From positions 96,001-160,000 of the forward strand of contig CAVXWP010000010.1 of assembly GCA_963765495.1 (NCBI GenBank): a stretch of 64,000 nucleotides of DNA, written 5' to 3'. The notes below the pieces were generated by a model, which made no database searches, was not told where the DNA came from, and worked only from the letters and a program-made list of their open reading frames with translations. Both the position numbers and the translations under genes were made by a program. Origin of the DNA: Blastocatellia bacterium. Its GTDB lineage: Bacteria; Acidobacteriota; Blastocatellia; UBA7656. Below, piece by piece: positions 13,161 through 55,583 of the stretch. Each line of letters opens with the position of its first letter. Position 1 is the first letter of the stretch.

Positions 13161-13244
13161 TATATATACTTCCCGAGCTAAATTAAGAACCCCGTTCCAC
13201 TGGTTACTCGCAAGCGATGAACGGGTCAGCTTGCTTTAGACGCT

Positions 13245-13658
13245 TTACCTCTTATTTTTGTCGTTGAATTGTTCGCGCCTGCGGTCGCTTTCGCGGACAA
13301 GCTCTTCGAACTCAGGCAATTGTTCGGGGGAAAGTGCAGCACGCATGCGATCTCTGCCCTGCTGGCGCACTACGTCAATACGCGGTTCTATATCTTTTCG
13401 GATATCTGCGTACTTGTCGAAGGTTTCATCTAGTATGCCCTTGATCTGGTCTCGCTGATCGGGGGTGAGTTTGAGACGGGTAGTCATCTTTTCGATGATG
13501 TAATCCTGTGGCTTGTGGTTATGCTCTTCGCGCGACGGATCGGAAGTGGTTATGCCGGAATAGAGGTTCATGGCCAGCGCGCCGGCCAAAAAACCTATTG
13601 CGAATACTGCAAGCACGATCAAGCGCGCTTTGGTTTGACTTCTGGTATTACTTTCCAT
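13245..13658 (-). CDS. Membrane-anchored Spy/CpxP-like periplasmic helical protein
   Basis: N-terminal TM; LKLTPDQ and LSPEQ (LTxxQ) motifs; start overlaps the anti-sigma stop region. Confidence 0.7.
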   Translation of the reverse strand: MESNTRSQTKARLIVLAVFAIGFLAGALAMNLYSGITTSDPSREEHNHKPQDYIIEKMTTRLKLTPDQRDQIKGILDETFDKYADIRKDIEPRIDVVRQQGRDRMRAALSPEQLPEFEELVRESDRRREQFNDKNKR

Positions 13659-14217: not shown

Positions 14218-14957
14218 TTCATATTCCTCTGTTTGCGTTCGGCGCTCATAATCAGCCGCTTCATCGCCGCTCGCAAAGTCCTTCGTGCCCGAAAGGCCCT
14301 CACCTTGATTTTGGAATGACCCCACCCGGTCATCTCGGAAATTTCGCCTACAGAATACCCATCCCTGTCCATCAGCACAATCACCAGCCTGTCTTCGGGC
14401 TCAAGCTTTTCGAGCAATCTCTCGGCAATATCTGCCGATTCGCGCTGCCGTTCGGCGCTCGCGTGCCGATCAAAAGCCGCCTCTAGCATTTGAAGTTCGA
14501 GCCATTCGCCCTCGTTTTCTGCGCCCTCTGGCATGTGATACTCAGCCCGGCGGCGCTGCGCTCTCAATTGATCGTAGCACGCATTTACCGCGATCTTTGC
14601 AACCCAGGCTTCGAAAGAACGCCCAAGCGTAAAGGTCGCAAGCGAAAAATAGGCCCTGGCAAAAACCTCCTGCGCGATGTCTTCGATCATGTCGCGGCGG
14701 CGAAAAAAGCTGCCGATTATATTGAAGACTCGCGGGCTGTAACGGCGAACCAGAACCTCGTAACTGTACTGGTCTCCGGCCAGGCTCTGGCGGATCAAAT
14801 CATCTTCGCCCGCCTTGCCGGTTACTGCTCGCAGGTCCGATTCCTCTTCAATCGCCAGGGGCTCGGCATCGGCGCCAGCCGAAACTTCAGCCTGGGCGCG
14901 CGGAGCCGCACCTTGCGCGATGAGGTTATTTGACTGACTCTTACGGTCGCCTGGCAA
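14214..14957 (-). CDS. ECF RNA polymerase sigma factor
   Basis: Region 2 'EDIAQEVF..F.AW..KIAVN.CYD..R'; region 4 'GYSVGEISEMTGW..SKIKVRAFRAR'; SD AGGAGG before TTG. Confidence 0.92.
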   Translation of the reverse strand: MPGDRKSQSNNLIAQGAAPRAQAEVSAGADAEPLAIEEESDLRAVTGKAGEDDLIRQSLAGDQYSYEVLVRRYSPRVFNIIGSFFRRRDMIEDIAQEVFARAYFSLATFTLGRSFEAWVAKIAVNACYDQLRAQRRRAEYHMPEGAENEGEWLELQMLEAAFDRHASAERQRESADIAERLLEKLEPEDRLVIVLMDRDGYSVGEISEMTGWGHSKIKVRAFRARRTLRAAMKRLIMSAERKQRNMK

Positions 14958-15187
14958 AAGCCTCCTGATCTCCTAGCGCCTTCCCTCTACAGGCGCTAAC
15001 TCGGCTGATCTCGCTTTCATCCTAAAAAATCCACCCCTTGTAAGTTAACCTCTGACGGGCTTTTACATCAAACCGTATCAGTTAAGCGGCACGCGATTGT
15101 ATTGACAAAGAACCATTCCGGATCATCAACCCGGCCCGGATTCGCGGCTATAAGGCGCGGACCCGGCTTGGTGGCCACATTGCTAAA

Positions 15188-15213
15188 GACGATGGAAGGA
15201 GATCGACGGTTAC
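15188..15213 (-). promoter_or_regulatory. Putative ECF-type (autoregulatory) promoter
   Basis: Minus strand GTAACC-16 nt-CGTC upstream of the sigma gene, matching the general ECF AAC/CGT pattern. Confidence 0.5.
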
Positions 15214-15238
15214 GAAAATTCCTTGGGTGATTCGTAAA

Positions 15239-15322
15239 GAGTGATGCGTGATGCGTGATTTTCGAGCAAGCATTCCGTTTAAGCTGCCTTACAAGCCTGT
15301 TATATCACGAATCACGCATCAC
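15239..15322. repeat. Heptamer inverted-arm element (GTGATGC)n ... (ATCACGn)n
   Basis: GTGATGCGTGATGCGTGAT and ATCACGAATCACGCATCAC. Confidence 0.75.
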
Positions 15323-15490
15323 CCAAGAAACTCCGCCGCGATGCGATTACACTCAGCGGCAGCGGCGCTTTCATTGTGAGGGCTTGTGATTTGCGATCAA
15401 GAGCCGCTCGATTTTCCCACGCCGCCTATTCTCAGGAAAAGCTTCGCACGCATAAAGAGCTTACTGAGAATCAACTGGCCTCGGATTATT

Positions 15491-15544
15491 CTGAAAAAAA
15501 CTTCATCTCATTTTCATAAAGCTTTAAGTCTGAAAGTGTATCTT
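15491..15544 (+). promoter_or_regulatory. Putative OmpR/PhoB-type activator site plus -10 element upstream of actA1
   Basis: A-tract then TTCATCT/TTCATAA/TTAAGTC at 11-bp period (15502, 15513, 15524) and TATCTT at 15539; near-identical architecture at 36538-36590. Confidence 0.65.
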
Positions 15545-15722
15545 TACAGGCAGACCAGATTATCTGGCGGAGACGAAACGGGAGATGAATGGGCGCTCGG
15601 AATATTCCCGTTCCAGGCCAGAGGTTGCCCGCTCGATCTCAGCCCCCGATTATGAGGGCCGTTGACTGAGCCTCGCTGCCTGTTCATCGTTTCGCCGATC
15701 CGGGTCAGACAGAATCGCCACA

Positions 15723-16382
15723 ATGCATCGAACATCCCATCGTAGCACGAATACGATTGCCCGTGTGACTATCTATGGCGCGGTCTTTCTGCTCGCCTTT
15801 ATTGCCTGGGCGACCTACACCATAGGCATTTCGCCATACATTACCGAAGTGGGCGTGCCGCGGCCACAGCCTGTGCCTTTCAGCCACAAACACCACGCAG
15901 GGCAACTCGGCATTGATTGCCGCTATTGCCACGCGACGGTCGAGACATCCGCCTTTGCCGGGATGCCGCCTACCTCTACCTGCATGAATTGCCATTCGCA
16001 GATATGGACCGGCAGCCCCTTGCTCGAACCCGTGCGAGAGAGTTACCGCACCGGAAAACCGCTTATCTGGACCAGGGTCTACAACCTCCCACAGTTCGCC
16101 TATTTCGATCACAGCATTCATATCCACAAAGGCGTAGGCTGCGCGACCTGCCACGGGCGGATGGACCAGATGCCGCTGACTTGGCAGGCAAGCCCTATGT
16201 TGATGCAGTGGTGTCTGGAGTGTCACCGCGACCCGGCGCGATTCGTCAGGCCGCGCGAAGAAGTATTCAATATGGACTGGCAGGCTCCGAAAAACAGGTC
16301 CGACCTCGGACGGGAGCTTATCAAACTCTACAACATCAAGGACACACGCAGGCTGACCGATTGCTCTACGTGTCACAGATAG
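15723..16382 (+). CDS. actA: Alternative complex III pentaheme cytochrome c subunit (copy 1)
   Basis: N-terminal TM; five CxxCH (CRYCH, CMNCH, CATCH, CLECH, CSTCH); QPVPFSHKHH. Confidence 0.93.
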   Translation: MHRTSHRSTNTIARVTIYGAVFLLAFIAWATYTIGISPYITEVGVPRPQPVPFSHKHHAGQLGIDCRYCHATVETSAFAGMPPTSTCMNCHSQIWTGSPLLEPVRESYRTGKPLIWTRVYNLPQFAYFDHSIHIHKGVGCATCHGRMDQMPLTWQASPMLMQWCLECHRDPARFVRPREEVFNMDWQAPKNRSDLGRELIKLYNIKDTRRLTDCSTCHR

Positions 16383-27443: not shown

Positions 27444-28080
27444 GACCACTCAATCGCTTGTAGTGCAGTTCCGCGACATGGAGCAACAGCGGGAAGCCTC
27501 TACCATTGGGATGTGGGTCTTCCTGATGACGGAGTTGTTGCTGTTCGGCGTGCTCTTTACCGCCTACGCCGTTTATCGCCATCTCTACACGGCAGCATTC
27601 TTTGAGGGAAGCCATCACATGGAGGTAGGCGTAGGCACTCTCAACACGGCGATTCTGATTTCGAGCAGCTTCGCCGTTGCGATGGCGGTCTATGGCTCCG
27701 AGGTAGGCGGGCGCAAACGAGTGCTTGTGGGATTGAGTCTGACGATATTGCTCGGCGCGGTCTTTCTCGCGCTCAAGTTCCTGGAATACTATCATCACTA
27801 TGAAGACCATCTGGTTCCCGGGATAGATTTTCATTACGAAGGCGCGCTGGCCCCTTACGTTCAAATCTATTTCTTTCTCTATTTCACGATGACCGGGCTG
27901 CACGCGCTCCATATGACGGTAGGTCTCGGGCTTGTGACATACATTCTGATTCAGGCAAAGAGGCGCGTCTATTCGCCCGTCTATTACACGCCGGTCGAGG
28001 TAGTCGGCCTCTACTGGCATTTCGTAGACATAGTCTGGATATTTCTTTATCCATTGCTCTACCTGATAGACCCGCGCTGA
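27436..28080 (+). CDS. coxC: Cytochrome c oxidase subunit III (copy 1)
   Basis: [25 protein letters not shown]. Confidence 0.93.
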
Positions 28081-38061: not shown

Positions 38062-40251
38062 TCACTTGTTCTTGTTCTTCTTCTTCTTCAACTTCGCTTT
38101 TACTGCTTTGATTATGAAATTCTCGTCACACTCATCCTGCCCCGTGTAACGGGAATCTCCGTAAGCGATCACACGCACTCGTACCTTCTTGCTCGGTGAA
38201 TTCGGAACTACCCAGTTGTAACTCGTCGTCATGCCCGACAAGCCGTTTACAATGTCGGTCCACCTGCTGCCGCCGTCGACCGTGTATTGAATGTCCTGTC
38301 TGTAGAGCCCCGTGCCTGTTACGGTCCATTTTATCGTCAGCGTTTGCCCGCTCGATACCTTGATCCGAGTATTGGGTGAAAGGATGTGAACCACAGGCTC
38401 TACAGGCTCTCCCGCATCCACGGTGATCGTAGTCTGCGCGTTCGCGGTAGCGCCTCCGTTATCGGTCACCGTAAGACGCGCCAGATAAGTGCCCGGCGTC
38501 TGGTAATTGTGCTCGGGCGATGCGATGGCCGATGTCTGTCCGTCGCCAAAATCCCAACTGTATCCGACCACCTGCCCGTCCGGGTCGTTTGCAAAGACGG
38601 TGAAGCTCACCCGTAAGGGCGCGACCCCCGAAGTCCGCGACGCGGTGATCGTGACAACAGGCGACTGGTTCCCTGCTCCGGTCGCGGTTATCTGAACAGT
38701 GGCGCTTGCCATTGCGCCGCCGTTATCTGTTACCGTCAGTTTGGCAGTGAATGTGCCCGCGACCTGATAGACGTGTGAAGGCGATGCCTGAGACGAACTC
38801 TGCCCGTCGCCGAAATCCCAGTTGTATCCGACTACCTGCCCGTCGGGGTCGGAAGCATTCGAGGCAAAGGCGACCGCAAGTGGGGCCGCGCCCGATGTGG
38901 GCGTAGCCGATACGCTTACGGCGGGCGGCTGATTGCCGGGCGGATTTTCCGAGGGCATCTCTCGCGCCCCTATGTCGAAAGCGTTGCCCTGCGGGCGAGG
39001 AACCGACAGGTAATCGTTTAAGACCCCGGTGAGGCTTTCGCCGTGATCTATGACCGGGCTGTCGCTTGCGGGCAAGTACATCTCTTCGGCATCGAGCATC
39101 GGGTCGGTTGTCATCGAATTGTGATCCGCGCCCATGCCCAGCTGCCAGTCGTTGAAATTCTCCCAGTAATGGCCGGCGCTGGGTGTCTCCTGCCAGAACT
39201 TGTATGTGCCGCCAGTCGGTCTGAACCATACGTTTGAATCTGAGACGAGCGGGTCCAATAGGTTCATCACAAAAGCCATCGGGCGACTGCTCAACACGAC
39301 CACTATATTGTTTTTGAACCGGACCTGCTCGGCGGGAACTTCGCGGCCGTTCATAGTCACATAGAAACCGCCGTTGTAACTCTGCGCCACATCATAAAGC
39401 GTGTTGTTCTCGAAACTGATGTTCTTGCCCGAGTATGTGCCTAAGCCCGCGCCCTTCGTAGCGATAATAATGTTGTTGCGGGCTACCGAGTTCAGACATT
39501 CATAGGGAGTGCCGTTGCGCATGAACTCTTCGTCCGTATCCTGACCGAGCAGTATCCCTGAATGGCCCGTATGTTCTATTCGATTGCGCTCGATCACGCC
39601 GTTTGTGGCTCCGCCTTTGAGGTAAATCCCGGTCGTCGCGGTGTCGTGAATGTAGCAATCGCGTATCGTGATGCCTATCGAACCTATTGAGTCGATGCCT
39701 TCGGCATTTGACGAATCGCGGACTCCCGATGGTCCTATCTCGCACTTTTCGATCAAAAGATTGTCGCAGTTGAATGTCTTGACGCAATCGCGGCCCGAGT
39801 TGTAGATGCGGCAATTTGTTATAACGGCGTTGGTCGCCTCTTCGAGCTTCACCGCATAGTAGGAACCGCCTTGAATCTCAAGGTCTTTCAGCGTGATGTT
39901 ATGCGCATAGATAATAAACAGAGAAGCCAGGTTGGTTTCATCGGTCGTGGAACCTGTGATGACAGCCTTCTCATCGGTGTAGGAAGAAAAAGTGAGGTTA
40001 TCTTTATCAACCCAGAGGAAACGTGAAAATGTGTAAGTTCCTCCTCTGAGAATGATGTTATCGCCCGGCGAAGCGAGATCGAAAGCGTGTTTGACGGTCG
40101 CCACAGGCGAGTTGAGCGTGCCCGGATTTCCATCGTTACCGTTTGTAGAAACGTAAAGATTTGCAGCAGCAGCGTCTGTCGCGGCGGCGCTGAAAACAGA
40201 GACTGTAAGAATCAGACAAAAGAATACTATCAGTTTTTTTGTTTGTGCCAT
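38062..40251 (-). CDS. Secreted right-handed beta-helix protein with two PKD domains and a C-terminal Ig-like domain
   Basis: Signal peptide; YVSTNGNDGNPGT..P; beta-helix repeats; 'DIGARE'; two PKD repeats (WDFGDG..H.Y...GT..A.LTVTD); poly-Lys end. Confidence 0.85.
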   Translation of the reverse strand: MAQTKKLIVFFCLILTVSVFSAAATDAAAANLYVSTNGNDGNPGTLNSPVATVKHAFDLASPGDNIILRGGTYTFSRFLWVDKDNLTFSSYTDEKAVITGSTTDETNLASLFIIYAHNITLKDLEIQGGSYYAVKLEEATNAVITNCRIYNSGRDCVKTFNCDNLLIEKCEIGPSGVRDSSNAEGIDSIGSIGITIRDCYIHDTATTGIYLKGGATNGVIERNRIEHTGHSGILLGQDTDEEFMRNGTPYECLNSVARNNIIIATKGAGLGTYSGKNISFENNTLYDVAQSYNGGFYVTMNGREVPAEQVRFKNNIVVVLSSRPMAFVMNLLDPLVSDSNVWFRPTGGTYKFWQETPSAGHYWENFNDWQLGMGADHNSMTTDPMLDAEEMYLPASDSPVIDHGESLTGVLNDYLSVPRPQGNAFDIGAREMPSENPPGNQPPAVSVSATPTSGAAPLAVAFASNASDPDGQVVGYNWDFGDGQSSSQASPSHVYQVAGTFTAKLTVTDNGGAMASATVQITATGAGNQSPVVTITASRTSGVAPLRVSFTVFANDPDGQVVGYSWDFGDGQTSAIASPEHNYQTPGTYLARLTVTDNGGATANAQTTITVDAGEPVEPVVHILSPNTRIKVSSGQTLTIKWTVTGTGLYRQDIQYTVDGGSRWTDIVNGLSGMTTSYNWVVPNSPSKKVRVRVIAYGDSRYTGQDECDENFIIKAVKAKLKKKKNKNK

Positions 40252-40442
40252 CTCATACCCCATCAACAGCCGCCATGCTATGGGCTTGTTACGCAGTACT
40301 CTTTTGGCTTGCGTTTTTGATCAGCCGATATGCTGGCGACCTGTGGTCCCACACGGCTCGGAGGCGAGGTTCCGTTGTGGTGCGGAGCCAGGTCTTGGGG
40401 ACTTCCCGCTAGATTGGGAGTGAGATGGACCAACTCAGGTGG

Positions 40443-43723: not shown

Positions 43724-44905
43724 ATGAGAGACGTATTTCTGGTTTCATCTGTGAGAACACCTATCGGCAGGTTTGGCGGCACATTGAAGGATTTGAGCGC
43801 GGCCGATCTTGCCGTCCCCGTAGTTGAAGAGAGCCTCAAGCGCGCGGGGCTCAGTCCCGAAATCATCGACGAAGTGATCATAGGCAATGCGCGACAGGCT
43901 GGTGGAGGCCCGAACGTAGCGCGCCAGATAAGCTATCGCGCCCGCATCCCAGAGATCGTCCCCGCCTACACGGTGAACAAAGCCTGCGGGTCGGGGTTAA
44001 AGGCTATCCTGCTTGCGGCTCAAGAGATAATGCTCAACCGGGCCGAGGCGATAGTCGCGGGCGGAACCGAATCAATGAGCCGCGTGCCGTATCTGGCCGA
44101 GGGCGCGCGATGGGGCTTGAGGATGGGCAATGTCGATCTGGTTGACGGGATGTACAGGGACGGCTTTTTTGACCCGCTTTCAGGGCAGGTGATGGGAGAA
44201 ACCGCCGAAACTCTCGCCCGTGAGTATGAAATCTCTCGCCAGGAACAGGATCAGTACGCCCTGCGTTCGCAGCATCGCGCAGAGGCTGCCACCCGCCAGG
44301 GAAGGCTTCGCGCCGAAGTGTTTCCGCTCACGATCAAGGACCGTAAAGGCAACGACGTAGAGTTCTCAACCGACGAGCACATCCGCAACAACTCGACGCT
44401 CGAATCTATGCAAAAACTGCCTCCCGTCTTTGCTTCGGACGGGACGGTCACGGCTGGCAATTCGTCTGGAATCACAGACGGCGCAGCGGCGATGCTTGTG
44501 GTATCGGAAGATTTCGTCAAGGCGCACGGCGTACAACCACAGGCCCGGCTGGTCGATTACGAGATTGCGGGCGTTGATCCTCGCGTGATGGGGATCGGGC
44601 CCGTACCGGCAATTCGGCGGCTTCTCGAACGCCGCAAATTGTCGCTTTCAGAGATTGATCTTATAGAGCTTAACGAAGCCTTTGCGGCACAGGTGCTGGC
44701 CTGCGACCGCGAACTTCATTTCGATCACGACCGGCTGAATGTAAACGGCGGGGCAATAGCCCTGGGCCATCCGATAGGCTGCACCGGAGCGCGCATAACC
44801 ACGACTTTGCTGCACGAGCTTGAGCGCAGCAAGGCGAGGCTCGGACTTGCTACGCTCTGCATATCGGGAGGGATGGGAATAGCCGCGCTTGTCGAGCGCG
44901 TGTGA
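43724..44905 (+). CDS. Acetyl-CoA C-acyltransferase (thiolase)
   Basis: [36 protein letters not shown]. Confidence 0.95.
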
Positions 44906-45206
44906 ACGATCCGATAAACAGACAAGTGAGTCAGGGCCATTCGAATATTTATCCGCTCAATTCTTTTCTTGTGCTGCTTGCCTTTTTTTATACTTTAAGC
45001 TACATTCTCGCCAAATCCCGCGCTGGCTTCAAAAACGAGCGCGGGCTCTTAAGGTCAGCCATTTAGAGACGAACCCGGGCGAGCAATATTTTGGCGAGTA
45101 ACTTTTTAGCCTGGAAGTATATTCGCAAAACTATTGCCAGCCCGCCCGGTTTCTCTCTCACCAGTTCAAGGCCCGCGACTTAATAGAGTTGAGAGGTGGT
45201 GCCGCC

Positions 45207-46544
45207 ATGAGCAGCTACGTTGGGAAGAATTACTGGGTATTTCTTAGTTATGCCAGACGAGACGCCAAGGGGCTTGAGGGCAAAGAGAATCCGTTTTTCG
45301 AGCGGTTTTACAAAGACCTGGCGTCTGAGATCGGCAAGGTTGCCGCAATACCGGCTTCTATTCCCGAGAAGGATATTCAGTTTTATGACCGCGAAGATAT
45401 AGAAATTGGTGCCGACTGGAGCAAGACTCTTTATGATGCGCTACAATCGAGCAAGGTGTTTGTATGTCTCTTTTCGCCGAGTTACTTCAAGAGCGAATAT
45501 TGCGGCAAAGAGTTTCAGGTCTTTAATGAGCGCGTGAAGAAATATAAAGCCGCCCTGTCTCAAAACGTCAGGGAACCCGAGTTGATTATTCCTGTCTTGT
45601 GGGAGAATCCAAACAGGTTTCTTGAACCATTGCCCGAGGCCGTATCCGGCATTCAATACGCGGATAAGAATCTCGGTCTGGGTTACTCCAATATAGGTGT
45701 TTCCCAGATGCTCAGGCTCCAAAAAGAGGTGGATTATCAAGAATTCCTGATAAATCTGGCGGATAAAATCTACAAAGAGGCCCAGTTTCATCCGATGCCG
45801 CCGGAGCCTTCCATCAAGCCTTTGAAAGATGTAAAGAGCGCGTTCCACGTCCCTCCGACCCCGGCCGTTGTGGCGGGAGCGGTTCCCGGTGCTAAAGGGC
45901 CGAGCATAGCGTGGTTTATCTATGCCGCGGGAGGCAAAGCGGATTACAACAACATAAGGCAACAGCAATCGCAGATTTTCTACGGCAATTCCGGGCTGGA
46001 GTGGCAGCCCTACTATCCAACCGATCCGAACATCATCCATTACATTGCCGCTACTGTCGCAACGACGAAAGGGCTTGCGCCGATACCCCTGGCCGTAAGC
46101 AACAGCCTGATAGATCAACTTGAAGAGGCCGAAGACAACAACACGATTGCCGTCATAATAATCGATCCGTGGAGCATAAAATTGCCCGCGTTTGAACAGC
46201 CGCTGAAACAATTTGACAGGACTCGTCTGTCCAATTGTGGAGTTATCATAGTCTGGAACGAGAACGATCAGGAAACCAAGACCGCGCGCACCGCCCTTGA
46301 AACGCTTTTGCAAAAGACGTTTTCTCGCAACTACATCTCGAAAGATATCTTATTTCAACCCTCAATCAGTTCCGAAACAGAGTTGCGCACCAAACTCGGC
46401 GAGGCGATTGAGGAAGTCAGAAAGAAGATAGAAGAACGAGGCAAATATCTGCGCGGGGAGTCCGGCGCAGCAAATGACCCCTTTCCGAAACTCCCGACAG
46501 CAAACTCCACTCCCTCCCCAACCACCCCGACCGGAGGCGTATAA
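45207..46544 (+). CDS. TIR-like FxsC-family protein
   Basis: TIR box FLSYAR..FY.DL..FYDREDI.IGADW..AL..S..FV.L.SPSYF.SEYCGKE; C-terminal WQPYYP / IIIDPWS block resembling the FxsC C-terminal domain. Confidence 0.8.
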   Translation: MSSYVGKNYWVFLSYARRDAKGLEGKENPFFERFYKDLASEIGKVAAIPASIPEKDIQFYDREDIEIGADWSKTLYDALQSSKVFVCLFSPSYFKSEYCGKEFQVFNERVKKYKAALSQNVREPELIIPVLWENPNRFLEPLPEAVSGIQYADKNLGLGYSNIGVSQMLRLQKEVDYQEFLINLADKIYKEAQFHPMPPEPSIKPLKDVKSAFHVPPTPAVVAGAVPGAKGPSIAWFIYAAGGKADYNNIRQQQSQIFYGNSGLEWQPYYPTDPNIIHYIAATVATTKGLAPIPLAVSNSLIDQLEEAEDNNTIAVIIIDPWSIKLPAFEQPLKQFDRTRLSNCGVIIVWNENDQETKTARTALETLLQKTFSRNYISKDILFQPSISSETELRTKLGEAIEEVRKKIEERGKYLRGESGAANDPFPKLPTANSTPSPTTPTGGV

Positions 46545-49500
46545 TGGACGCAAATGAATTCTCAGACACCGCGCAAGAGGAGAACAGGAACGGAAAGATA
46601 ATCACCTTCTACTCATATAAAGGCGGCACGGGGCGCTCGATGATCCTGGCAAACGTGGCCTGGGTGATGGCGAGCAGCGGAAAGAGAGTGCTCACCATAG
46701 ATTGGGATTTGGAAGCGCCGGGGCTCCATCGTTACTTCTACCCGTTTCTTCTCGATAAGGATTTGAACTCCTCGGAAGGGGTCATAAATTTCTTCCACAT
46801 CTATAAGATGAGAGCATTGACCCCACCCGCATCAGGTGCGGCAACGGGTGAAAACTGGCATCAGGAATATGCCGATATCAGACAGTATGCCGTATCGCTC
46901 GATTGGAAATTCCCTCAAGGAGGCCGTCTCGATTTCGTGCCTGCGGGCAAACAGGATGAAACATACTCGAATCTCGTAAACTCGTTCAACTGGGAAGATT
47001 TTTACACGCGCCTCGGTGGGAACAAATATCTGGAAGCGGTCGCGGCGCAGATGAGCAAGAATTACGACTATATACTTATTGACAGCCGAACAGGCGTAAG
47101 CGACACGTCGGGCATCTGTACGGTCAAGCTGCCTGATGCGCTGGTCGTCTGTTTTACGCTGAATTATCAGAGCATCAACGGAGCTTCGTCGGTGGCCGAT
47201 TATGTTTACAAAGCGCGAGGCCCCGCCGCCCTTGAACAGACGCAAACTCCTACCGAGACCAGGAGCAATAGAGTAGAAAACGGCAAACCTTTATTCAACA
47301 TATTTCCGCTGCCGATGCGTCTGGAAGATGCTCAAAAGCGAAAGATGGAACGGCGGCGCGATTATGCGCGGCTCAAGAGATTCGCGCCCTATCCCATATA
47401 TATTCACGAAGGAACGCGAGAAGACTACTGGGCAAGAGTGCCGGTTCAATACGACTCTTACTATGCGTACGAAGAAGTGCTGGCGGCATTCGGGGAAAAG
47501 GAACGAGACATAACCTCTCTTCTCGCTTCGGTCGAACGTATCACAGCGTACCTGACCAATGGTGAGGTTACTTCTCTGTCTGTTCTCCCCCAGCCGAAAC
47601 GCGAGGAGATACTCAAGGAATTCGAAGGCGACACATACGAACCGCCTGCCACGGAACCGACAACCAGCAAGGCCGCCGAAAACGCGTTTGCCAGCCTCGG
47701 ACCGGAAGATCAGGATATGGCCCGTAAGGTCATACTACGACTCGTGAGAGTAGCGGGGCCAAACGAGAGCGAACACGTTCGACAGGTTGTGAACCTCAAT
47801 GAATTCGACAGGTCGGAAAAGCCGCTTATAAGGACTTTAGGCAATTTTCAATTGCTCAATAGCTATACAGATAAAAACGCGGGTGAAGAGGTTGTTCAGA
47901 TCGCTCAGGATGTCTCTTTGCAGGATTGGAAAGAGTTACAGACGTGGATTGACCACGACCGGGAATTCCTGCTCTGGCTGCAAAGGTTGCGCTCTCAGGC
48001 AACCGAATGGAAGCAGCGCCAAAGAGACGAAAGCCTGCTTCTCGGCGGCGCCCCCCTTCAGGTTGCCAGAGACCGCCTCGCAGACCGAAGCAAAGATTTG
48101 TCGAGCCTCGAAAAAGAGTATATCAATGCCAGCATAGCCTTCGATGAGCGGTTGATGATTGAGAGAGAGAAAGAGAGGCAAGAGCAGCAGAGGAAGTTGG
48201 AGGCGGAACAGATTGCCGCCGCAAACGAGAAACGCAAGAGGTATGAGCAGGAGCAGCAAAGCGGCTGGCTGAAGAATCTGCTCGAGCGGTTTAATTTTTC
48301 GACGCCGCCCGCACCCGAAGAACCGGGTGAGAGCCTTAATATAGTAACGGCCCGACAGGTCCTTCGCGGGACCCGCCTCGGTCCGGGCGAGATGCTGGCG
48401 CTCGCAAAGAGGCTGAAGGAAGAAAAGGCATTCAGTTACGCAAGGCGTGTGCTTGCGAGCGCGCGAGCGAGGGGAGGACTCGATCAGGACAAGGATCTGA
48501 AACTGAAGATATATCAGCAATCGGCCCTCTGCACATACAAGGACACCGATCTCCCCGCCGATAAACGGCTCGATCTCGCGTTGAAGATATTGCGCGAGGT
48601 TGAAGACATTTCCACAACCCGAGATCAGGAAACCCTCGGTCTGGTAGGAGCAATCTATAAGCGCAAATGGGAGGTTGACAATCAGAAGCAGCAACTTGAA
48701 AGCTCGCTCATGTATTATCAGCGAGGGTATCAGGAAGGCCCCGAAAAAGATCAGGGTTATACCGGCATAAACGCCGCATTCATACTCGACCTGCTTGCTT
48801 ATCAGGAGGAAGAAGAGTCCAGGCGAGCCAACAAAGACTCAGACACCGCTCGCTCGCGCCGCGCCGAGGCTCGTCGCATCCGCGAGAGCATTGTCCAGAG
48901 GGTTGCGCCACTGGCCGGGCAGTCGGGCACCGAGTGGCTGGCTGAAATGTGGTGGTATTACAGCACGGTAGCCGAAGCATTTTTCGGGCTCAGACGATAT
49001 GGAGAGGCGGTCCAGTGGTTGAATCGCGGACGCAATGCTATTGGCAACATCCCCGAATGGGAATACGAAGCGACAATCCGCCAGCTTGTTCATCTCGCTC
49101 GCCTGCAAAGCGATACGGATTATTCGAGCAAGGAATTTGAGAACACCGAAGCGTGGCGCGCGCTCCGAGAATTTTTCGGTGATGATGTCGCACCCCTGCG
49201 CAGCGCATTCCTGGGCAAGATAGGTCTGGCCCTGTCGGGCGGGGGCTTTCGCGCTTCGCTTTTTCACATCGGCGTACTTGCGCGACTTGCCGACCTCGAC
49301 CTCTTGCGCCACGTCGAGGTCTTATCCTGCGTATCGGGCGGGGCGATCATCGGAGCGCACTACTATCTTGAAGTGCGGAAACTTCTGCAATCAAAACCCG
49401 ACCGCGAGATCACCCGTGAGGATTACATCGAGATGATCGCGCGCATCAAGGACAGCTTCTTAAGAGGCGTGCAGCGAAACATCCGCACGCGCATCGCAGC

Positions 49501-50938
49501 CGAATTTCTGACCAATCTGTGGATGATCGTTCTACCCGATTACTCGCGCACCAGCAGAGCAGGCGAGTTGTACGAACGGGAAATCTTCTCCCGGATAGAC
49601 GATGGAGAAGGCAACAAGCCGCGATGGCTAAACCAGTTGAGTATAGCCCCGCTCGGCGAGACCGAAAATTTCTCTCCCAAATCGCATAACTGGAAACGCG
49701 CTGCGAAGGTGCCGATCCTGATTCTCAATGCCACAACGCTCAACACAGGGCATAACTGGCAGTTTACAACTACGTGGATGGGCGAACCGCCCGCCTATAT
49801 CGACAGCGAAATAGATGGGAACGACTATCTGCGGCGTATGTATTACTGGGAGGCCCCAAAACGCCACAGGCAAATCCGCCTCGGCCAGGCGGTTGCCGCC
49901 TCGGCCTGCGTGCCGGGCATCTTCGAACCGCTTGTGCTCAAAGACCTCTACCCGGACAGGGTCGTGCGGCTGGTTGACGGCGGCGTGTGCGACAATCAGG
50001 GAGCATTCGGATTGCTTGAGCAGGATTGCACGGTCATGATGATCAGCGATGCGAGCGGGCAGATGTCATCACAGGAAGACCCGGCAAGCGGGGTCATAGG
50101 TCCGCTAAAAAGGTCGAACACGATCTTGCAGTCACGAGTGCGCGAGGCGCAGCACGGCGAACTGCTTGCCCGATGGCGGTCATCGCTGCTTCGCGGGTTT
50201 ATGTTCGTGCATCTGAAGGAAGACCTGAGCGTTGATCCCGTCGATTGGGTCGATTGTCGCGACCCTCATAATGCCCTTGAGGATGACGCATTTCCGGCTG
50301 CTCGAAAAGGGATATTGACCAGGTACGGGATTGCAAAGGAACTGCAAGAGAGCCTTGCCAAAGTCAGGACCGATCTCGACTCGTTCTCAGATGTTGAGTC
50401 TTACTCTTTGATGACGAGCGCATATCGCATGACAGATTACGCGTTCAAGCAATCAGAGAGTCTCAAGAATTTCCCTGGTCAAGCAGGCAATGAAATGTGG
50501 GATTTTCTAAAGATCGAACGGTCGATGGTTGGCATCGGAGCGGGTTACAGTAGAGTGAAAAAACTCCTCGGGTTGAGCAGCAGTCTGGCTTTCAAGGTCT
50601 GGAAAGGCTCTCCTATCGTGACGGCTGTCGCTATAGTTTTCCTGCTTTCGATGATCGCTTTTGCCCTGTGGGGCTATATGAACATAAGCCTTGTCCGGTC
50701 AATCATCAATTGGAGTGGTGTAGTGCTGGCAATCACGGCCCTGCTCACGACCATCTTTACCATAGTCAGCAAAGTAATAGTGGGCGGAATGCGCTGGCGG
50801 GCAATCCTATCGCCAATTGTTTTGGGCACTCTGATGATTTCGATAGGGTGGATTCTTATGCGTCTTCATCTGTTGATCTTCGACAAAATATTTCTGAGGC
50901 GCGGGAGCATGCAGAAGATCGAGCGCCAGACCGATTGA
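46544..50938 (+). CDS. Multidomain ParA/MinD-like ATPase + nSTAND-type helical module + TPR-S-like repeats + patatin-like phospholipase + C-terminal TMs
   Basis: FYSYKGGTGRS, DWDLEAPGL, YDYILIDSRTG; 'WI..DREFLLW.QRL...A.EW....RDESLLL.G'; 'ETLGLVGAIYKRKW..GYTGINAA'; LALSGGGFRA, SCVSGG, AASACVPG, DGG; about three hydrophobic helices at the C-terminus. Confidence 0.82.
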   Translation: MDANEFSDTAQEENRNGKIITFYSYKGGTGRSMILANVAWVMASSGKRVLTIDWDLEAPGLHRYFYPFLLDKDLNSSEGVINFFHIYKMRALTPPASGAATGENWHQEYADIRQYAVSLDWKFPQGGRLDFVPAGKQDETYSNLVNSFNWEDFYTRLGGNKYLEAVAAQMSKNYDYILIDSRTGVSDTSGICTVKLPDALVVCFTLNYQSINGASSVADYVYKARGPAALEQTQTPTETRSNRVENGKPLFNIFPLPMRLEDAQKRKMERRRDYARLKRFAPYPIYIHEGTREDYWARVPVQYDSYYAYEEVLAAFGEKERDITSLLASVERITAYLTNGEVTSLSVLPQPKREEILKEFEGDTYEPPATEPTTSKAAENAFASLGPEDQDMARKVILRLVRVAGPNESEHVRQVVNLNEFDRSEKPLIRTLGNFQLLNSYTDKNAGEEVVQIAQDVSLQDWKELQTWIDHDREFLLWLQRLRSQATEWKQRQRDESLLLGGAPLQVARDRLADRSKDLSSLEKEYINASIAFDERLMIEREKERQEQQRKLEAEQIAAANEKRKRYEQEQQSGWLKNLLERFNFSTPPAPEEPGESLNIVTARQVLRGTRLGPGEMLALAKRLKEEKAFSYARRVLASARARGGLDQDKDLKLKIYQQSALCTYKDTDLPADKRLDLALKILREVEDISTTRDQETLGLVGAIYKRKWEVDNQKQQLESSLMYYQRGYQEGPEKDQGYTGINAAFILDLLAYQEEEESRRANKDSDTARSRRAEARRIRESIVQRVAPLAGQSGTEWLAEMWWYYSTVAEAFFGLRRYGEAVQWLNRGRNAIGNIPEWEYEATIRQLVHLARLQSDTDYSSKEFENTEAWRALREFFGDDVAPLRSAFLGKIGLALSGGGFRASLFHIGVLARLADLDLLRHVEVLSCVSGGAIIGAHYYLEVRKLLQSKPDREITREDYIEMIARIKDSFLRGVQRNIRTRIAAEFLTNLWMIVLPDYSRTSRAGELYEREIFSRIDDGEGNKPRWLNQLSIAPLGETENFSPKSHNWKRAAKVPILILNATTLNTGHNWQFTTTWMGEPPAYIDSEIDGNDYLRRMYYWEAPKRHRQIRLGQAVAASACVPGIFEPLVLKDLYPDRVVRLVDGGVCDNQGAFGLLEQDCTVMMISDASGQMSSQEDPASGVIGPLKRSNTILQSRVREAQHGELLARWRSSLLRGFMFVHLKEDLSVDPVDWVDCRDPHNALEDDAFPAARKGILTRYGIAKELQESLAKVRTDLDSFSDVESYSLMTSAYRMTDYAFKQSESLKNFPGQAGNEMWDFLKIERSMVGIGAGYSRVKKLLGLSSSLAFKVWKGSPIVTAVAIVFLLSMIAFALWGYMNISLVRSIINWSGVVLAITALLTTIFTIVSKVIVGGMRWRAILSPIVLGTLMISIGWILMRLHLLIFDKIFLRRGSMQKIERQTD

Positions 50939-50943
50939 ACCAT

Positions 50944-51240
50944 TTATTGATAAGGGTGGAACCATCCTCGTGTGAAGTAATCGCTCAGGGTCAGGGTGAT
51001 CATAATCGCCAGCCAGAAGATACCTGCCGCGACTATTACTTTCGTAAGCCGCGAACTGTATCGCACGTGCATGAAATAGAGAACCACAAGCAGCGCCTTG
51101 ACGACCGCGATAGTCAGGGCAAGGACGACATTCATACGTCCGAGATCCATAAATGCCACGGCTACGGTCAGCCCCGTAAAAAACATCAACGAGATGAATA
51201 CTGCAAAATAAACTTTAAGGGAAACAATATGCTCTGACAT
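50944..51240 (-). CDS. coxD: Cytochrome c oxidase subunit IV (copy 2)
   Basis: KALLVVLYFMH, SDYFTR. Confidence 0.88.
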   Translation of the reverse strand: MSEHIVSLKVYFAVFISLMFFTGLTVAVAFMDLGRMNVVLALTIAVVKALLVVLYFMHVRYSSRLTKVIVAAGIFWLAIMITLTLSDYFTRGWFHPYQ

Positions 51241-51251
51241 GATTCTTTCCT

Positions 51252-51989
51252 TCAATGCAAGGTATGCCGACCCAACAGGTACAGGAGTGGAAACAGAAAA
51301 ATCCACACGATGTCAACAAAGTGCCAGTAAAGCCCCGAAAGCTCAACGGGCGAGTGATATTCGGGAGTGAAGCGCCCTTTACTTGCCATGTAAAGCAGCA
51401 CAGACATCACGCCCAGACCGATGATCATATGCAGCGCGTGGAGCCCCGTCATCGCAAAGTAAATCCAGAAGAACATCTGCACCTTGTTTGTATCGAGCGG
51501 TGCCGTTTTCGCTCCTTCGGCGGCGGCGGCACCTTCGTGCCCGCCTTTCGTCTCTTCTTCAAAGTGGAAGCTCTGGCCGGGGAAATGGTGATGATCAAAC
51601 TTTTCCTTGTATTCGACCGCCTTTATTCCCAGAAAGACGAGGCCGAAAAACATGGTCGCGACCAGAAATCCCATCAGCATCCGGCGATTGCCCGTTTGAG
51701 AGCCATAGACCGCCAGCGCCATAGTCAGGCTGCTACAGATGAGCACCCCCGTGTTGATCGCGCCAAGCGTCACATCGAGCGAGTTACTTGCCACCGAGAA
51801 CTCTTTGGCATAGAGCGAGCGATAGAGCGTATAGGCCAGAAACATACCGCCAAAGAACATTATTTCGGTGATAAGGAATACCCACATTCCAAGGGTTCCG
51901 GCCTCGCGCTGCTGCTCCATATTATCGAAATGGTGGGCCAGCCCCGCGCTATGCGCCTCTTCATGAGTTACTGTGTGAGTGTCAGCCAA
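51252..51989 (-). CDS. coxC: Cytochrome c oxidase subunit III (copy 2)
   Basis: [24 protein letters not shown]. Confidence 0.93.
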
Positions 51990-52010
51990 AGCAGCTCTCC
52001 TCTCATCAGA

Positions 52011-53651
52011 CTAAAACTCTCCAACGATCTCTGCCTGTTCGCGCGGACGGAATTCATATGCGTTCCACGTCACGACAGGCGTAACTTCAAAGTTATGCGT
52101 GGGCGGCGGCGAAGAGGTTCGCCACTCAAGCCCGGTTGACGGCCAGGGGTTGGCGCTCGCGATGGGGCCGTATCTCATCGACCATACGAAATAGACCATT
52201 GGCAACAGATAGCCCACCGCCAGTATCGAAGCCCCGGCCGATGACATCACGTTCAGGACTTGAAATTCGGGCGGATAGGCGTGATAGCGGCGCGGCATCC
52301 CCATATAGCCCAGCAGGAACTGCGGGAAGAAGGTCAGATTGAAACCGAGGAATATGATCAGGGCTCCGAGCTTGGCCCATCCTTCGGGGTACATCCGCCC
52401 GCTTATCTTCGGCCACCAGTAATGCATTCCGCCGAGATAGCCCATTATCGCGCCGCCCACCATAATGTAATGGAAATGCGCGACCACGAAATATGTGTCC
52501 GTCACGTGGACATCCATCCCGAGGGCCGCCAGAAACAATCCCGTCAGCCCGCCTATCGTAAACAGACCGATAAAGCCAAATGCATAAAGCATCGGAGTCT
52601 GGTAGGAAAGCGAGCTTCGATAGAGCGTGGCCGTCCAGTTAAAGACCTTGACCGCAGACGGGATAGCCACCGCAAAGCTCAGGAAAGAGAATATCATCCC
52701 GGCGTAAATTGACTGGCTGCTGACAAACATGTGATGTCCCCAGACCAGAAATCCGAATACCGCGATGGCTATGCTCGAAAAGGCTATGAACCTGTAGCCG
52801 AAGATATTCTTCCGGCTGAAGGTGGCTACAAGCTCGCTGACCACACCCATAGAAGGCAGGATCATGATGTATACGGCCGGGTGGGAATAGAACCAGAACA
52901 TGTGCTGAAAAAGGACCGGGTCTCCGCCCAAGGCCGGGTCGAATATGCCTACGTGGACAAGACGCTCAAATGCCAGAAGCAGTATGGTGATCGCAATCAC
53001 GGGGGTTCCGAGCACCTGAATCAAACTCGTCGCGTAATGCGCCCAGACGAAAAGCGGCAACCTCATCCAGCCAAGTCCAGGCGCTCGCATGGTGTGGATC
53101 GTGACTATGAAATTCAATCCCGTAAGTATCGACGAAAACCCCGTTATGAAGATGCCCACGGCGGTCGCCATAACATAGGTATTTGTGTAGTTGGTACTGA
53201 GCGGCGCATAGAAGGTCCAGCCCGTGTCAACGCCTCCGCTGATGATCGCGTAGAGAGATATGGTCGCGCCGACGATGTACACGTACCAGCTCAACAGATT
53301 CAACCTGGGAAAGGCTACGTCTTTGGCTCCGATCATCAGAGGGATCAGAAAATTTCCGAGCACGGCCGGTATCGAGGGGATCAGAAAGAAGAAGATCATC
53401 ACAACGCCGTGCATGGTAAAGAGCTTGTTGTAAGTCTCTGAGGAAACCAGATCGCCCTGCGGAGTGGCAAGCTCTAATCTTATGACGGTGGCGAATGCGC
53501 CGCCGAGAAAGAAGAAGAGGGTAATTGATATGAGGTAGAGCAGCCCGATACGCTTGTGGTCGGTCGTCAACAACCACGATTTCACGCCGTAGGCGGCATT
53601 CAGATAATGCGTTCGAGGTGCTACTGGAATTGCGGGCGCTGTCTCAATCAT
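52011..53651 (-). CDS. coxA: Cytochrome c oxidase subunit I, A2 type (copy 2)
   Basis: TTDHKRI, YSHPAVY, WGHHM, AHFHY, GMPRRY. Confidence 0.96.
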
Positions 53652-53663
53652 GGTTATTATTCC

Positions 53664-54704
53664 TTATTGCTGAGTGTTTCGATTCGCCCCCGAAGGCGTG
53701 ACAACCGGATTCGATCCCGGCGGATTCTGCGGATTTGTCATAGAGGGAGCCGCCTCTGTCCCGGCAGGCTTCTCGCCCAGAGATTTGATATAGGCGATCA
53801 ACTGTAACAACTGATCTTCGCTCACCTGTCCCTGGAAGGTAGGCATAATCGAAGGCTGCGCGAAACCGGCCACGATCTTCGCCTGCGAGTTTAGTATCGA
53901 TTCACGCAGGTAATTTTCGTCGGCGATAACGGTCTGTCCATTCGAGAGCGCCGTGGGCTTTCCGAAAAGATTTGTCAGCACAGGCCCGCGCCCCAGCCCG
54001 TCCGCCCGATGGCAGGTAACACAGGCCAGGTCCTGAAACAGCTTCTCACCCGAAGATGCGAGCGACCCGCCGACCGTCCCGCCCGAAAGCCAGGTCTCGT
54101 AATCGGCGGGCTCCATCACATAAATCCAGCCGATCATAGCCGAGTGGTTGGTTCCACAGTACTCCGCGCAGAACAGATGATACTTGCCCGCTTTCGTAGG
54201 CTCGAACCACAGCGAAGTGTACCGGCCTGGCACGACATCGGCCTTGACTCGAAACGCGGGGACGAAGAACGAATGAATAACGTCTTCGGTCGTCATAACG
54301 AGTTTGATCTTCTGACCTACGGGCACGTGAAGCTCGTTTATCTCCATCTGCCCGCCCATGTGCTGTAGTTTCCACATCCACTGCTTGCCGATCACATAAA
54401 CTTCGGTCGCATTTGTGGGCATGCGGTACATGCTGTAATAGATTTTCGCGCCCCAGCCAAATATGACCATAGAGATGATAAAAGGGATGACGATCCACAC
54501 GGCCTCAAGCCTCATCGCGCCGCGAACCGGGCGCGGGATCTCGTCGGGCGACTTGCGGCGATACTTGATTGCGAAGACGATTTCAAGTCCGGCGATCACT
54601 ACTACAAAAAAGATGGTTATCCCGACCAGGAAGAAATAGAGATCGTCTACTTGCCCCGCAAGCGTGGAAGCCTTTTCTGGCAAAAACGGTATCCAGTTTT
54701 CCAT
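53664..54704 (-). CDS. coxB: Cytochrome c oxidase subunit II with fused cytochrome c (copy 2)
   Basis: CuA motif [12 protein letters not shown]; heme CVTCH. Confidence 0.94.
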
Positions 54705-54707
54705 AAC

Positions 54708-55583
54708 CTAAGCGGTCCCTCCTATATCGGCCTGCTCGCCGCCGGTAACGCGCCGCTTGAGCAGCAAGATCATACCCGCAATTATGATGAGAGTGATTAC
54801 GCCGCCCACTCGAAGCATATTCATTACCACCGCTCCGTATTTGCCCGTCGCCGGGTCGTAGTGATAGCAGTAAAGCAACAACGCGTCTACGGGCGAGCCT
54901 ATGCGGCTTTCCGAAGCTTCGACCAGACCGAGCCGCACATCCTTTGGCGCGTAATCAATCCCGTAAAAGTAGCGCGCAAGCTTTCCTTCGGGCGTGGCGA
55001 TCATGATGCCGCTCGCGTGGGCAAACTGATTTATCTGCGGATCGAATTCATAGTGAAAGCCTATCGCTTTTGTGAAGGCGTCAATCGCCGCCTGATCTCC
55101 GGTTAGAAAATGCCAGCCCTGTCCGCCGCCGTCGTGTTTGTAGCGCGCAAGAATCTCTTGCTTCTTGGCCGCCGCGTCTTCGGGCAATTCTCGCGGATCG
55201 AAGCTGACCGCCAGAACATCGAAATCCTTGCCCGCGTCGAACGAGAGTATGTTGAGGCTGCTTGAAAGCCCGTTCAACACCTGATTACAAAGCATAGGGC
55301 ATTTGTAATAGACCGGCGCAAGTATAACGGGCTTTTCGCCGAAATACTTTCTGAGAGTCACGTTCTCGCCGTTCTCATCGCGAAAGACGAGGTCGAGCGG
55401 CAATTGCCCGTCGAGGTTCTGATCAATGCCTACGCTCCGCAATTTCTGAGGCAACCCCTGTTGCAATTGAACATCCGTGGGCGGGCGCTGGCCGTAGGCC
55501 GTCACCGCCGACAAAAGAGTGAAAGCTATAAATCCAATTATGAGTCTTGATGACTTCTGCCTGACTGATTTTTTACTGCTCAC
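54708..55583 (-). CDS. SCO family copper chaperone (copy 2)
   Basis: CPMLC, GWHFLTG, QFAH. Confidence 0.9.
   Translation of the reverse strand: MSSKKSVRQKSSRLIIGFIAFTLLSAVTAYGQRPPTDVQLQQGLPQKLRSVGIDQNLDGQLPLDLVFRDENGENVTLRKYFGEKPVILAPVYYKCPMLCNQVLNGLSSSLNILSFDAGKDFDVLAVSFDPRELPEDAAAKKQEILARYKHDGGGQGWHFLTGDQAAIDAFTKAIGFHYEFDPQINQFAHASGIMIATPEGKLARYFYGIDYAPKDVRLGLVEASESRIGSPVDALLLYCYHYDPATGKYGAVVMNMLRVGGVITLIIIAGMILLLKRRVTGGEQADIGGTA

Follow-up and report, generated by a model that had tools for sequence, protein, structure and literature searches.

An FxsC-type TIR gene paired with a ParA–TPR-S–patatin membrane protein: a predicted variant of the TIR-ParA class

'TIR-ParA apoptosis systems' are a class of computationally defined bacterial systems (Li, Burroughs & Aravind, bioRxiv 10.64898/2026.10.19.760177, 22 Oct 2026). 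According to the main text of this preprint, they begin with a conventional TIR encoded upstream (TIR-FC, the type present in FxsC, frequently accompanied by FxsC-C, which is termed an inactive TIR). It is followed by a ParA of the ConB2 type, recognized by an Arg where Walker A would have its second Lys and by a PG after sensor-1. The C-terminal modules comprise STAND NTPases including nSTAND1, ligand-binding domains, receptor-like transmembrane (TM) proteins, and rarer variants, and the proposed model runs from a sensor module via the ParA switch to the TIR domain, which destroys NAD+ (10.64898/2026.10.19.760177). Here, we describe a gene pair from a 64,000-nucleotide stretch of a Blastocatellia bacterium genome (GCA_963765495.1, contig CAVXWP010000010.1, positions 96,001 to 160,000), hereafter the window, in which an FxsC-type TIR gene (gene 1) is followed by a gene for a ParA protein ending in TPR-S, patatin, and TM segments (gene 2). 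Named relatives and the identity of L017 and L101, rather than a marker gene, place this soil acidobacterium in Blastocatellia, probably in Pyrinomonadaceae.

Patatins act as death effectors in cyclic-oligonucleotide-based antiphage signaling systems (CBASS). The two-gene system BcTir/BcTpr is reported to have anti-phage activity and to produce an isomer of cyclic ADP-ribose (cADPR) derived from NAD+, and 'Patatin-Tpr assemblies' are listed among its relatives (bioRxiv 10.1101/2023.05.26.542521). With moderate confidence, we explain the pair in the window as a predicted abortive-infection (conflict) system, namely a variant of the TIR-ParA class with the patatin as effector. A reading of the locus from its sequence, made before this analysis and referred to below as the sequence-only reading, had proposed an undescribed system. 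This holds in part: The TIR(FxsC)-ParA dyad is already described, whereas the phospholipase arm does not appear in the main text of 10.64898/2026.10.19.760177, where patatin, TPR-S, phospholipase, and lipase have no occurrence; its supplementary Figs S8 and S9 and tables may show the architecture. Thus, the core idea is in print as a preprint, and all domains are catalogued. A full-text literature search found no paper joining TPR-S, patatin, and TIR, and no other relevant paper on TIR-ParA, FxsT, PDC-M28, or 'Tetratricopeptide Repeats-Sensor'. The combination of nSTAND, patatin, and TPR returned only papers on fungal NLRs, and the text of an eLife 2020 article (PMC7159879) contains no TPR-S, patatin, or nSTAND1.

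Gene 1 matches Pfam TIR_2 at 1.5e-14, above the Pfam cut-off, and passes both NCBIfam models of FxsC, narrowly for FxsC_Nterm (NF040588; 133.8 bits, cut-off 130) and with 79.4 bits (cut-off 55) for FxsC_Cterm (TIGR04276). The Glu of YCGKE, within the classical TIR motif S..Y..S.YCGKE, is invariant in all 37 aligned FxsC-type proteins (29 database proteins, the window's own record included, and eight from loci), and P427 in the C-terminal tail is nearly invariant in the same alignment. AlphaFold2 models gene 1 as two alpha/beta domains separated by a disordered linker, with a predicted local distance difference test (pLDDT) of 88.2 and a predicted template-modeling score (pTM) of 0.53. When this whole two-domain model is compared with the PDB by Foldseek, the top matches are TIR domains, led by MAL (5uzb_A, E 1.7e-3, TMt 0.70) and followed by Hydra TRR-2, TLR1, TRAM, and AbTir (7uxu_A). 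A phmmer search of gene 1 against PDB sequences yields only matches at E ~0.7.

In gene 2, residues 18-219 match the NCBIfam model AAA_KGGVGR (NF047398) with 145 bits (cut-off 90). Residues 375-496 match Pfam nSTAND1 (PF20703, 1.8e-17) at profile positions 261-378 of 379 only, and no second P-loop is visible in this part. Residues 633-747 match TPR-S (PF20308, 2.6e-17), and Patatin (PF01734, 3.9e-15) is recognized from residue 895 onward; these three matches all lie above the Pfam cut-offs. Kyte-Doolittle hydropathy reveals three hydrophobic segments, all within residues ~1357-1450 and none elsewhere. In the last helix, we also observe an invariant H/F/D/L pattern (H1442, F1446, D1447, and L1451). 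Modeled with 55 stand-alone relatives, residues 590-1464 are predicted by AlphaFold2 to form one compact unit (pLDDT 80.9, pTM 0.84) with long helices at the hydrophobic C-terminal segments, and the best folds retrieved by Foldseek are cytosolic phospholipase A2 (cPLA2), VipD, and TPR proteins.

The motifs of both enzymatic parts of gene 2 are strongly conserved. GGGFR, the Ser of CVSGG, DGG, DWD, and DSRTG are invariant in 44/44 full-length homologues, in which K26 and R31 of ParA are nearly invariant, and the patatin dyad and oxyanion motif are likewise invariant in stand-alone forms of the module. A profile of the 44 homologues aligns KGGTGRS, DWD, and DSRTG with KGGTGKT, DGD, and DCPAG of MinD, and the patatin motifs with GGAAR, GTSMG, and VDGGM of PlpD. 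Judged by these alignments, the protein appears to have the expected patatin features, with GGGFR as oxyanion motif, CVSGG carrying Cys for the first Gly of GxSxG, and VDGGV. The catalytic motifs of TIR (Glu), ParA (KGGTGRS, DWD, DSRTG), and patatin (GGGxR, Ser, Asp) are intact.

These data bear out the domain calls of the sequence-only reading, which had seen in gene 1 a TIR with Glu at the catalytic position and an FxsC-like C-terminus, in gene 2 a ParA, TPR-S, a patatin with intact-looking motifs, and about three C-terminal helices, and in the whole an FxsC/ATPase pair joined to a membrane phospholipase module; the evidence comes from Pfam and NCBIfam matches, conservation among homologues, and hydropathy. 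Its statement that the two genes share base 46544 is likewise correct. The junction reads ...GGAGGCGTATAATGGAC, so that this base is common to the stop codon TAA of gene 1 (46542-46544) and the ATG of gene 2 (46544-46546) in a TAATG overlap. Together with a GGAGG ~7 nt before this ATG, the arrangement indicates that genes 1 and 2 are translationally coupled.

A 5.8-billion-protein collection contains 43 homologues with the same Pfam set that cover at least 93% of the gene 2 protein and are 42-62% identical to it. Most are metagenomic, and the named ones belong to Pyrinomonadaceae. The ParA–TPR-S–patatin fusion is a real family, and a rare one. Conservation of the same architecture in the 43 homologues points to purifying selection on the fusion. 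Hence, it is most improbable that the locus is a decaying or inert remnant of a chance fusion that no longer functions, as its single copy in an isolated position might suggest: The frames are open over 445 and 1464 codons, and all catalytic motifs are intact.

Prediction of a complex between FxsC and ParA (residues 1-345), a model of the pair that the sequence-only reading had asked for, gives ipSAE interface scores of 0.81, 0.81, and 0.79 versus 0.52 for the best control. In the calibration of these scores, that mark was reached by 58 of 80 solved complexes and by 2 of 110 mismatched pairs, counts that are only approximate for FxsC–ParA since own alignments served as input. No fewer than 76% of contacts are shared between runs, and partner pLDDT does not fall below 81. 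On FxsC, the predicted interface is formed by tail residues 408-432 and parts of both domains, while the ParA side comprises residues 70-120, 130-161, and 184-224. For ParA proteins, the partner-binding surface is described as the beta2-beta3 insert and helix 4 (10.64898/2026.10.19.760177). The model supports binding of FxsC to the ParA domain, partly via the conserved C-terminal tail, which may act like a MinE or ParB peptide.

The genome of 7.3 Mb (17 contigs) holds one copy of each gene. The ParA–TPR-S–patatin fusion was found in none of 40 relatives, and in a phylum sample of 401 genomes, 10 match at E <=1e-30, with residues 1-1464 spanned only in the window's own genome (G000). Among the closest FxsC homologues (32 at E <=1e-8), many are labeled 'FxsC-like', and for seven the longest contig equals in size that of a ParA–patatin homologue. 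A genome scan matched at least 600 stretches, 561 of them confirmed relatives, and 80 loci were analyzed among the matches listed. A TIR-type gene lies directly upstream in 7/7 of these loci with a ParA-...-TPR-S–patatin gene, as a full-length FxsC in L028, L031, L040, and L080 and as an open reading frame (ORF) starting with TIR in L054, L090, and L064. In genomes G032 and G035, the TIR gene likewise precedes the ParA gene.

While cox3 and orf120, a 120-residue ORF of the cytochrome oxidase operon, are conserved in 13/13 relatives, neither thiolase nor FxsC nor the ParA protein follows them in any of the 13 within the stretches examined (~8.5-9.7 kb in 12 loci, 1.1 kb in L127). The pair is therefore located at a synteny break. 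A simple insertion between thiolase and cox was also considered and set aside, as the relatives keep cox3 and orf120 and none shows the thiolase in the examined stretch, which leaves a synteny break only. The distribution of the pair is patchy, and it is not a conserved core locus, yet it does not lie in a recognizable defense island. A vertically conserved core locus would have refuted the sequence-only reading and is contradicted by the fusion in 1/401 genomes and the break relative to 13 relatives. Defense-island linkage, for which that reading had proposed a survey, is not seen at the pair: Metabolic and respiratory genes flank it, and a defense-island context was rejected. Island-like contexts, unlike that of the window, are seen around related copies in L031 (a metagenome-assembled genome, MAG, of Acidobacteriota; 274-1791, 12361-13554, and 14045-16051) and L042 (4685-10377), which encode additional TIR-start proteins, a small patatin, and TPR-S proteins whose N-terminus resembles DUF4071.

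The C-terminal part of gene 2 also occurs independently. Residues ~590-1464 correspond to a separate gene (~870-960 residues, 49-57% identity) in six related genomes, and the module is found in Acidobacteriota, Desulfobacterales, Gammaproteobacteria, Nitrospirota, Gemmatimonadota, Planctomycetota, Verrucomicrobiota, and Variovorax defluvii. It stands behind a complete nSTAND1 NTPase (profile positions 1-374) in P0059, P0070, and P0071, behind ParA–TIR–NB-ARC in L064, and behind ParA–NB-ARC in L054 and L090, while direct fusions of TIR, TPR-S, and patatin place the TIR before the module in P0114 and after it in L085. Conversely, the FxsC–ParA cassette is joined to plain TPRs in G032 and to TIR–NB-ARC–TPR, the FxsT-like form, in G035. 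DUF4071-like genes adjoin the stand-alone module in 9/77 loci among the matches listed, a count based on recognizing the N-terminal motif by eye, with Pfam confirmation only for L059, L071, and L015; the 77 loci are the 80 minus L037, L049, and L073, which have no ORF meeting the patatin motif rule.

In a FastTree phylogeny of the module with 103 rows, the fused proteins are interspersed among the stand-alone ones. Parsimony requires 13-15 changes, and branches with good support enforce at least nine of them. One instance is fused P0005, which groups as sister with stand-alone P0049 at branch lengths of 0.07 and 0.055. The N-terminal halves of the tree's 21 fused proteins form one clade with a support of 97. 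All trees are FastTree only and include 55 stand-alone rows (top database matches and nine loci) out of 2652 hits; those 'stand-alone' database proteins that lie on short contigs may be truncated gene calls, which does not apply to the stand-alone genes at locus level. This pattern would reflect either repeated fusion and separation of the cassette or C-terminal exchange between fused copies and resident stand-alone genes, and it indicates that fused and stand-alone forms have exchanged the phospholipase module more than once. Effector swapping, which the sequence-only reading had proposed to look for, is thereby found on both sides, since the ParA cassette occurs with TPRs or TIR–NB-ARC–TPR and the module occurs alone, behind nSTAND1 or NB-ARC, and fused to TIR.

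Three further loci carry related genes in other states. On a Chitinophagales MAG contig (L071, 326-7638), the parts are split over four consecutive genes in the order TIR (215 residues), ParA–nSTAND1 arm–TPR (932 residues), DUF4071–TPR-S (442 residues), and TPR-S–patatin, which ends at the contig edge; by its predicted domains, the locus represents the window's system in split form, with one additional TIR-like component. In G003 (C45:332158-334796; L010, L021), the stand-alone TPR-S–patatin–TM gene is a pseudogene, split over four or more frames and containing one in-frame TGA. The window's own genome contains a second candidate pair (L108, G000 contig C2:469627-473688) right after a GspE-like ATPase. 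There, a DUF4071 (MAP3K_TRAF_bd) and TPR-S protein of 452 residues (1261-2619, +) is convergent with a small soluble patatin of 390 residues (2674-3846, -), and the equivalent locus of relatives holds a stand-alone TPR-S–patatin–TM gene.

In the resting state of the predicted system, the ParA domain would keep FxsC bound, and the patatin, tethered to the membrane, would be closed. A trigger, presumably linked to infection, would flip the nucleotide-dependent ParA switch, probably by dimerization or oligomerization, and the flipped ParA would free or activate the TIR NADase. The patatin would then be activated either by the same conformational change or by TPR-S binding an NAD-derived nucleotide made by the TIR domain. 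Loss of NAD+ and hydrolysis of inner-membrane phospholipids would finally stop or kill the cell before the invader spreads.

Alternatively, the TIR domain could be the sole killing effector via NAD+ depletion, as in the preprint model, while TPR-S–patatin–TM serves as sensor or anchor and signals to the ParA switch that a ligand is present or that membrane or lipids are disturbed, with the lipase being secondary or regulatory. We regard this as unlikely. It would agree with the scheme in the main text of the preprint, which puts sensors C-terminal to ParA and uses the TIR as effector; moreover, TPR-S–patatin occupies the usual position of sensor repeats after NB-ARC or nSTAND1 in STAND-type relatives, and the Pfam name of TPR-S contains 'Sensor'. 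However, the invariance of the patatin dyad and oxyanion motif in fused and stand-alone forms argues for a working enzyme, and patatins are reported as death effectors in CBASS (PMC13069673). Further, the module is widespread without a TIR-ParA partner and thus not merely a sensor accessory of the dyad.

With the patatin as effector, the TIR product may be sensed by TPR-S in a signal-to-suicide relay. That TPR-S–patatin recurrently pairs with TIR or DUF4071 enzymes speaks for a functional connection of the module to NAD-processing enzymes, as does the report that BcTpr, which is paired with a TIR gene, makes a cADPR isomer and protects against phage; this is no proof of a relay. A more specific version, which we put forward tentatively and consider somewhat doubtful, is a Thoeris-like relay within a ParA machine: ParA, in the place of the STAND core, would detect the invader and release FxsC, whose tail would be MinE/ParB-like, and the nucleotide made by the TIR would be read in cis by TPR-S, opening the patatin. 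If so, one two-gene unit would combine NAD+ depletion, second-messenger signaling, and membrane lysis, and TPR-S–patatin–TM would be a general nucleotide-gated death module common to TIR-ParA, STAND, and DUF4071 systems.

Several observations weigh against an abortive-infection system. The neighbors of the pair are housekeeping genes (thiolase, E1 dehydrogenase, and cytochrome oxidase) and form no defense island. PADLOC returns no full-system hit, as the sequence-only reading had expected, and for gene 1 only a weak match to PDC-S66 (0.0014). Since the patatin nucleophile lies in CVSGG, not GxSxG, and Arg takes the place of the P-loop Lys, the activities cannot be taken for granted. In Foldseek, the unsplit FxsC model matches TIR structures in the PDB weakly, never reaching E <=1e-3. 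Because the TIR-ParA class rests on one comparative-genomics preprint, that the pair is 'immune' is itself something we infer. Finally, the stand-alone gene is flanked by a GspE-like ATPase and an SLT-LysM protein in G012, G007, and G005, and this conserved synteny in several genera of the family would fit a physiological role too.

Such a role, without any immune function, could lie in membrane lipid remodeling, in a developmental or stress-related program of cell death or dormancy, or in NAD-derived signaling for physiology. Besides the housekeeping neighbors and the synteny by the GspE-like ATPase, it would be in line with the wide occurrence of the stand-alone module in Pyrinomonadaceae-type genomes and with the fact that no experiment links any member to phage. 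In contrast, the fusion is present in 1/401 sampled genomes, fusion and exchange are repeated, and the N-terminal partners vary (ParA, nSTAND1, NB-ARC, TIR, DUF4062). Additionally, the stand-alone copy is pseudogenized in G003, and L031 and L042 adjoin further TIR, patatin, and DUF4071 genes. Since rarity, exchange, varied partners, a pseudogene, and such neighbors are the usual marks of conflict systems and not of core physiology, we assign this alternative only a small probability and retain the TIR-ParA variant with a patatin effector as the best explanation.

The TIR-ParA class, purely computational so far in the main text of the preprint, becomes testable with the variant in the window, which provides two enzymatic read-outs that can be separated (NAD+ turnover and phospholipid hydrolysis), along with clear point mutants. 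As the same phospholipase cassette can apparently be driven by a ParA or a STAND NTPase, the variant bears on the interchange of bacterial immune switches. If TPR-S is the receptor for the TIR product, it would represent a new effector family for NAD-derived immune signals and would explain thousands of orphan TPR-S–patatin genes in soil bacteria.

Table 1. Features of the gene pair and its surroundings, in window coordinates.
Feature	Position	Strand	Remark
Gene 1	45207..46544	+	FxsC-type protein, 445 residues from ATG 45207 (record P0122)
Gene 1, alternative TTG start	45189	+	ORF 45189..46544, 451 residues
TIR domain (TIR-FC type)	45240..45785	+	FxsC_Nterm, TIR_2
TIR catalytic-position Glu codon	45510-45512	+	E102 in 445-residue form, E108 in TTG form
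FxsC-C domain, second alpha/beta domain	45951..46460	+	TIGR04276, model
Conserved FxsC C-terminal tail	46428..46502	+	Residues 408-432 (445-residue form), predicted on ParA domain
Gene 2	46544..50938	+	ParA / nSTAND1-arm / TPR-S / patatin / TM protein, 1464 residues
ParA-type NTPase, KGGxGR (ConB2) kind	46595..47200	+	NF047398
Walker A KGGTGRS	46619-46639	+	Followed by DWDLEAPG and DSRTG
nSTAND1 C-terminal arm, P-loop core absent	47666..48031	+	Pfam PF20703
Charged Glu/Lys/Gln-rich linker	48131..48313	+	Coiled-coil-like by eye, sequence read directly
All-helical TPR-S domain	48335..49213	+	Pfam core 48440-48784; helices 9-301 of AlphaFold2 fragment model
Patatin-like phospholipase domain	49226..50218	+	PF01734
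Patatin Ser931 codon (CVSGG)	49334-49336	+	Motif alignment
Patatin Asp1145 codon (DGG)	49976-49978	+	Motif alignment
RTDLDSF motif, gene 2 residues 1275-1281	50366-50386	+	Invariant; conserved region between patatin core and TM helices
Three hydrophobic helices	50612..50893	+	Residues ~1357-1379, 1392-1412, 1421-1450; then basic tail
Thiolase	43724-44905	+	Neighbor 5' of gene 1
Cytochrome oxidase operon	50944-55583	-	Convergent with gene 2
120-residue cox-operon ORF (orf120)	50944-51306	-	Immediate convergent neighbor of gene 2

The surroundings of the pair are as the sequence-only reading had placed them, with the thiolase upstream and convergent cox genes downstream, orf120 being the immediate neighbor with its stop 6 bp away from that of gene 2. 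This ORF directly follows cox3, an adjacency kept in 13/13 relatives at 52-71% identity, and probably encodes a small fourth oxidase subunit. GC content dips to ~0.50 across 45000-47000 compared with 0.57-0.59 just upstream. Scans for promoters and terminators do no better than shuffled sequences, with three promoter-like sites (shuffle mean 5.0) and eight terminator-like sites (shuffle mean 7.5). A second cox3-like gene at ~27454-28071 (+; G000:C10:123454-124071) is 52% identical to the cox3 at 51252-51989, and the organism thus has two oxidase gene sets at most 25 kb apart. Unrelated to the pair, 38062-40266 (-) encodes a protein of 734 residues with a right-handed beta-helix (NosD-like) and two PKD domains, which is probably secreted or surface-located.

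Compared with the TIR-ParA systems, gene 1 likewise appears to provide the upstream TIR with an NADase-type Glu (TIR-FC and FxsC-C), and the TIR gene directly precedes the ParA gene. The ParA of gene 2 displays both ConB2 signatures given in the preprint's main text (KGGTGRS and DWDLEAPG), an assignment by signature motifs and not by tree placement among the preprint's ParA clades. In the class, ParA is fused to variable C-terminal modules, among them nSTAND1-type ones. Gene 2 has only the nSTAND1 arm without the NTPase core, followed by TPR-S, patatin, and three TM helices; this TPR-S–patatin–TM module is absent from the subtypes named in the main text and adds a second candidate death enzyme.

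With the FxSxx-COOH clusters (FxsA/FxsB/FxsC/FxsT), the pair shares the two FxsC domain models passed by gene 1 and the KGGVGR type of the FxsT ATPase in gene 2. It differs in the lack of a peptide-processing neighborhood, and gene 2 is without the TIR–NB-ARC–TPR body of FxsT, which the relative in G035 has. In a whole-genome search for the FxsB radical SAM/SPASM protein (TIGR04269; FxsA was not searched for), the best match lies on a different contig and scores 23.3 bits (cut-off 370), and an FxSxx-COOH peptide cluster was rejected on this ground. PADLOC candidate PDC-M28B matches the ParA part of gene 2 at 1.4e-22, a weak support from the defense library, and PDC-M28 is incomplete, as gene 1 has no M28A match in PADLOC.

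Thoeris resembles the pair in that a TIR protein is encoded beside a candidate effector with a putative nucleotide-sensor domain, and the relay put forward by the sequence-only reading follows a Thoeris-like logic. However, the pair has no ThsA, SLOG, or Macro effector, and a ParA NTPase stands between TIR and effector; Thoeris was rejected, since the NCBIfam ThcB4 model matches only below threshold (25 bits, cut-off 220) and PADLOC has no Thoeris model for either protein at E <=0.1. CBASS with CapV has in common the patatin-type phospholipase as a likely membrane-destroying effector, whereas the patatin of the pair is membrane-anchored with TPR-S ahead of it, and there is no CD-NTase. CBASS was likewise rejected, with no CBASS/CapV model in PADLOC at E <=0.1 and no cyclase among the neighbors. 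In BcTir/BcTpr, as described in 10.1101/2023.05.26.542521, a TIR gene is also paired with a TPR-bearing protein, although the TPR of BcTpr is not equated with Pfam TPR-S; that system has no ParA, and its NADase activity resides at the N-terminus of BcTpr, in a domain other than the TIR.

The nSTAND1/NB-ARC, TPR-S, and patatin proteins (P0059, P0070, and P0071; L054, L064, and L090) share with gene 2 the TPR-S–patatin–TM module at 47-61% identity, a similar length, and the same nSTAND1 C-terminal arm. They differ in that the window has ParA for the STAND P-loop core (positions 1 to ~260) and a separate FxsC gene. Seen from its sequence, the window protein looks like an nSTAND1–TPR-S–patatin protein whose STAND P-loop core has been swapped for ParA.

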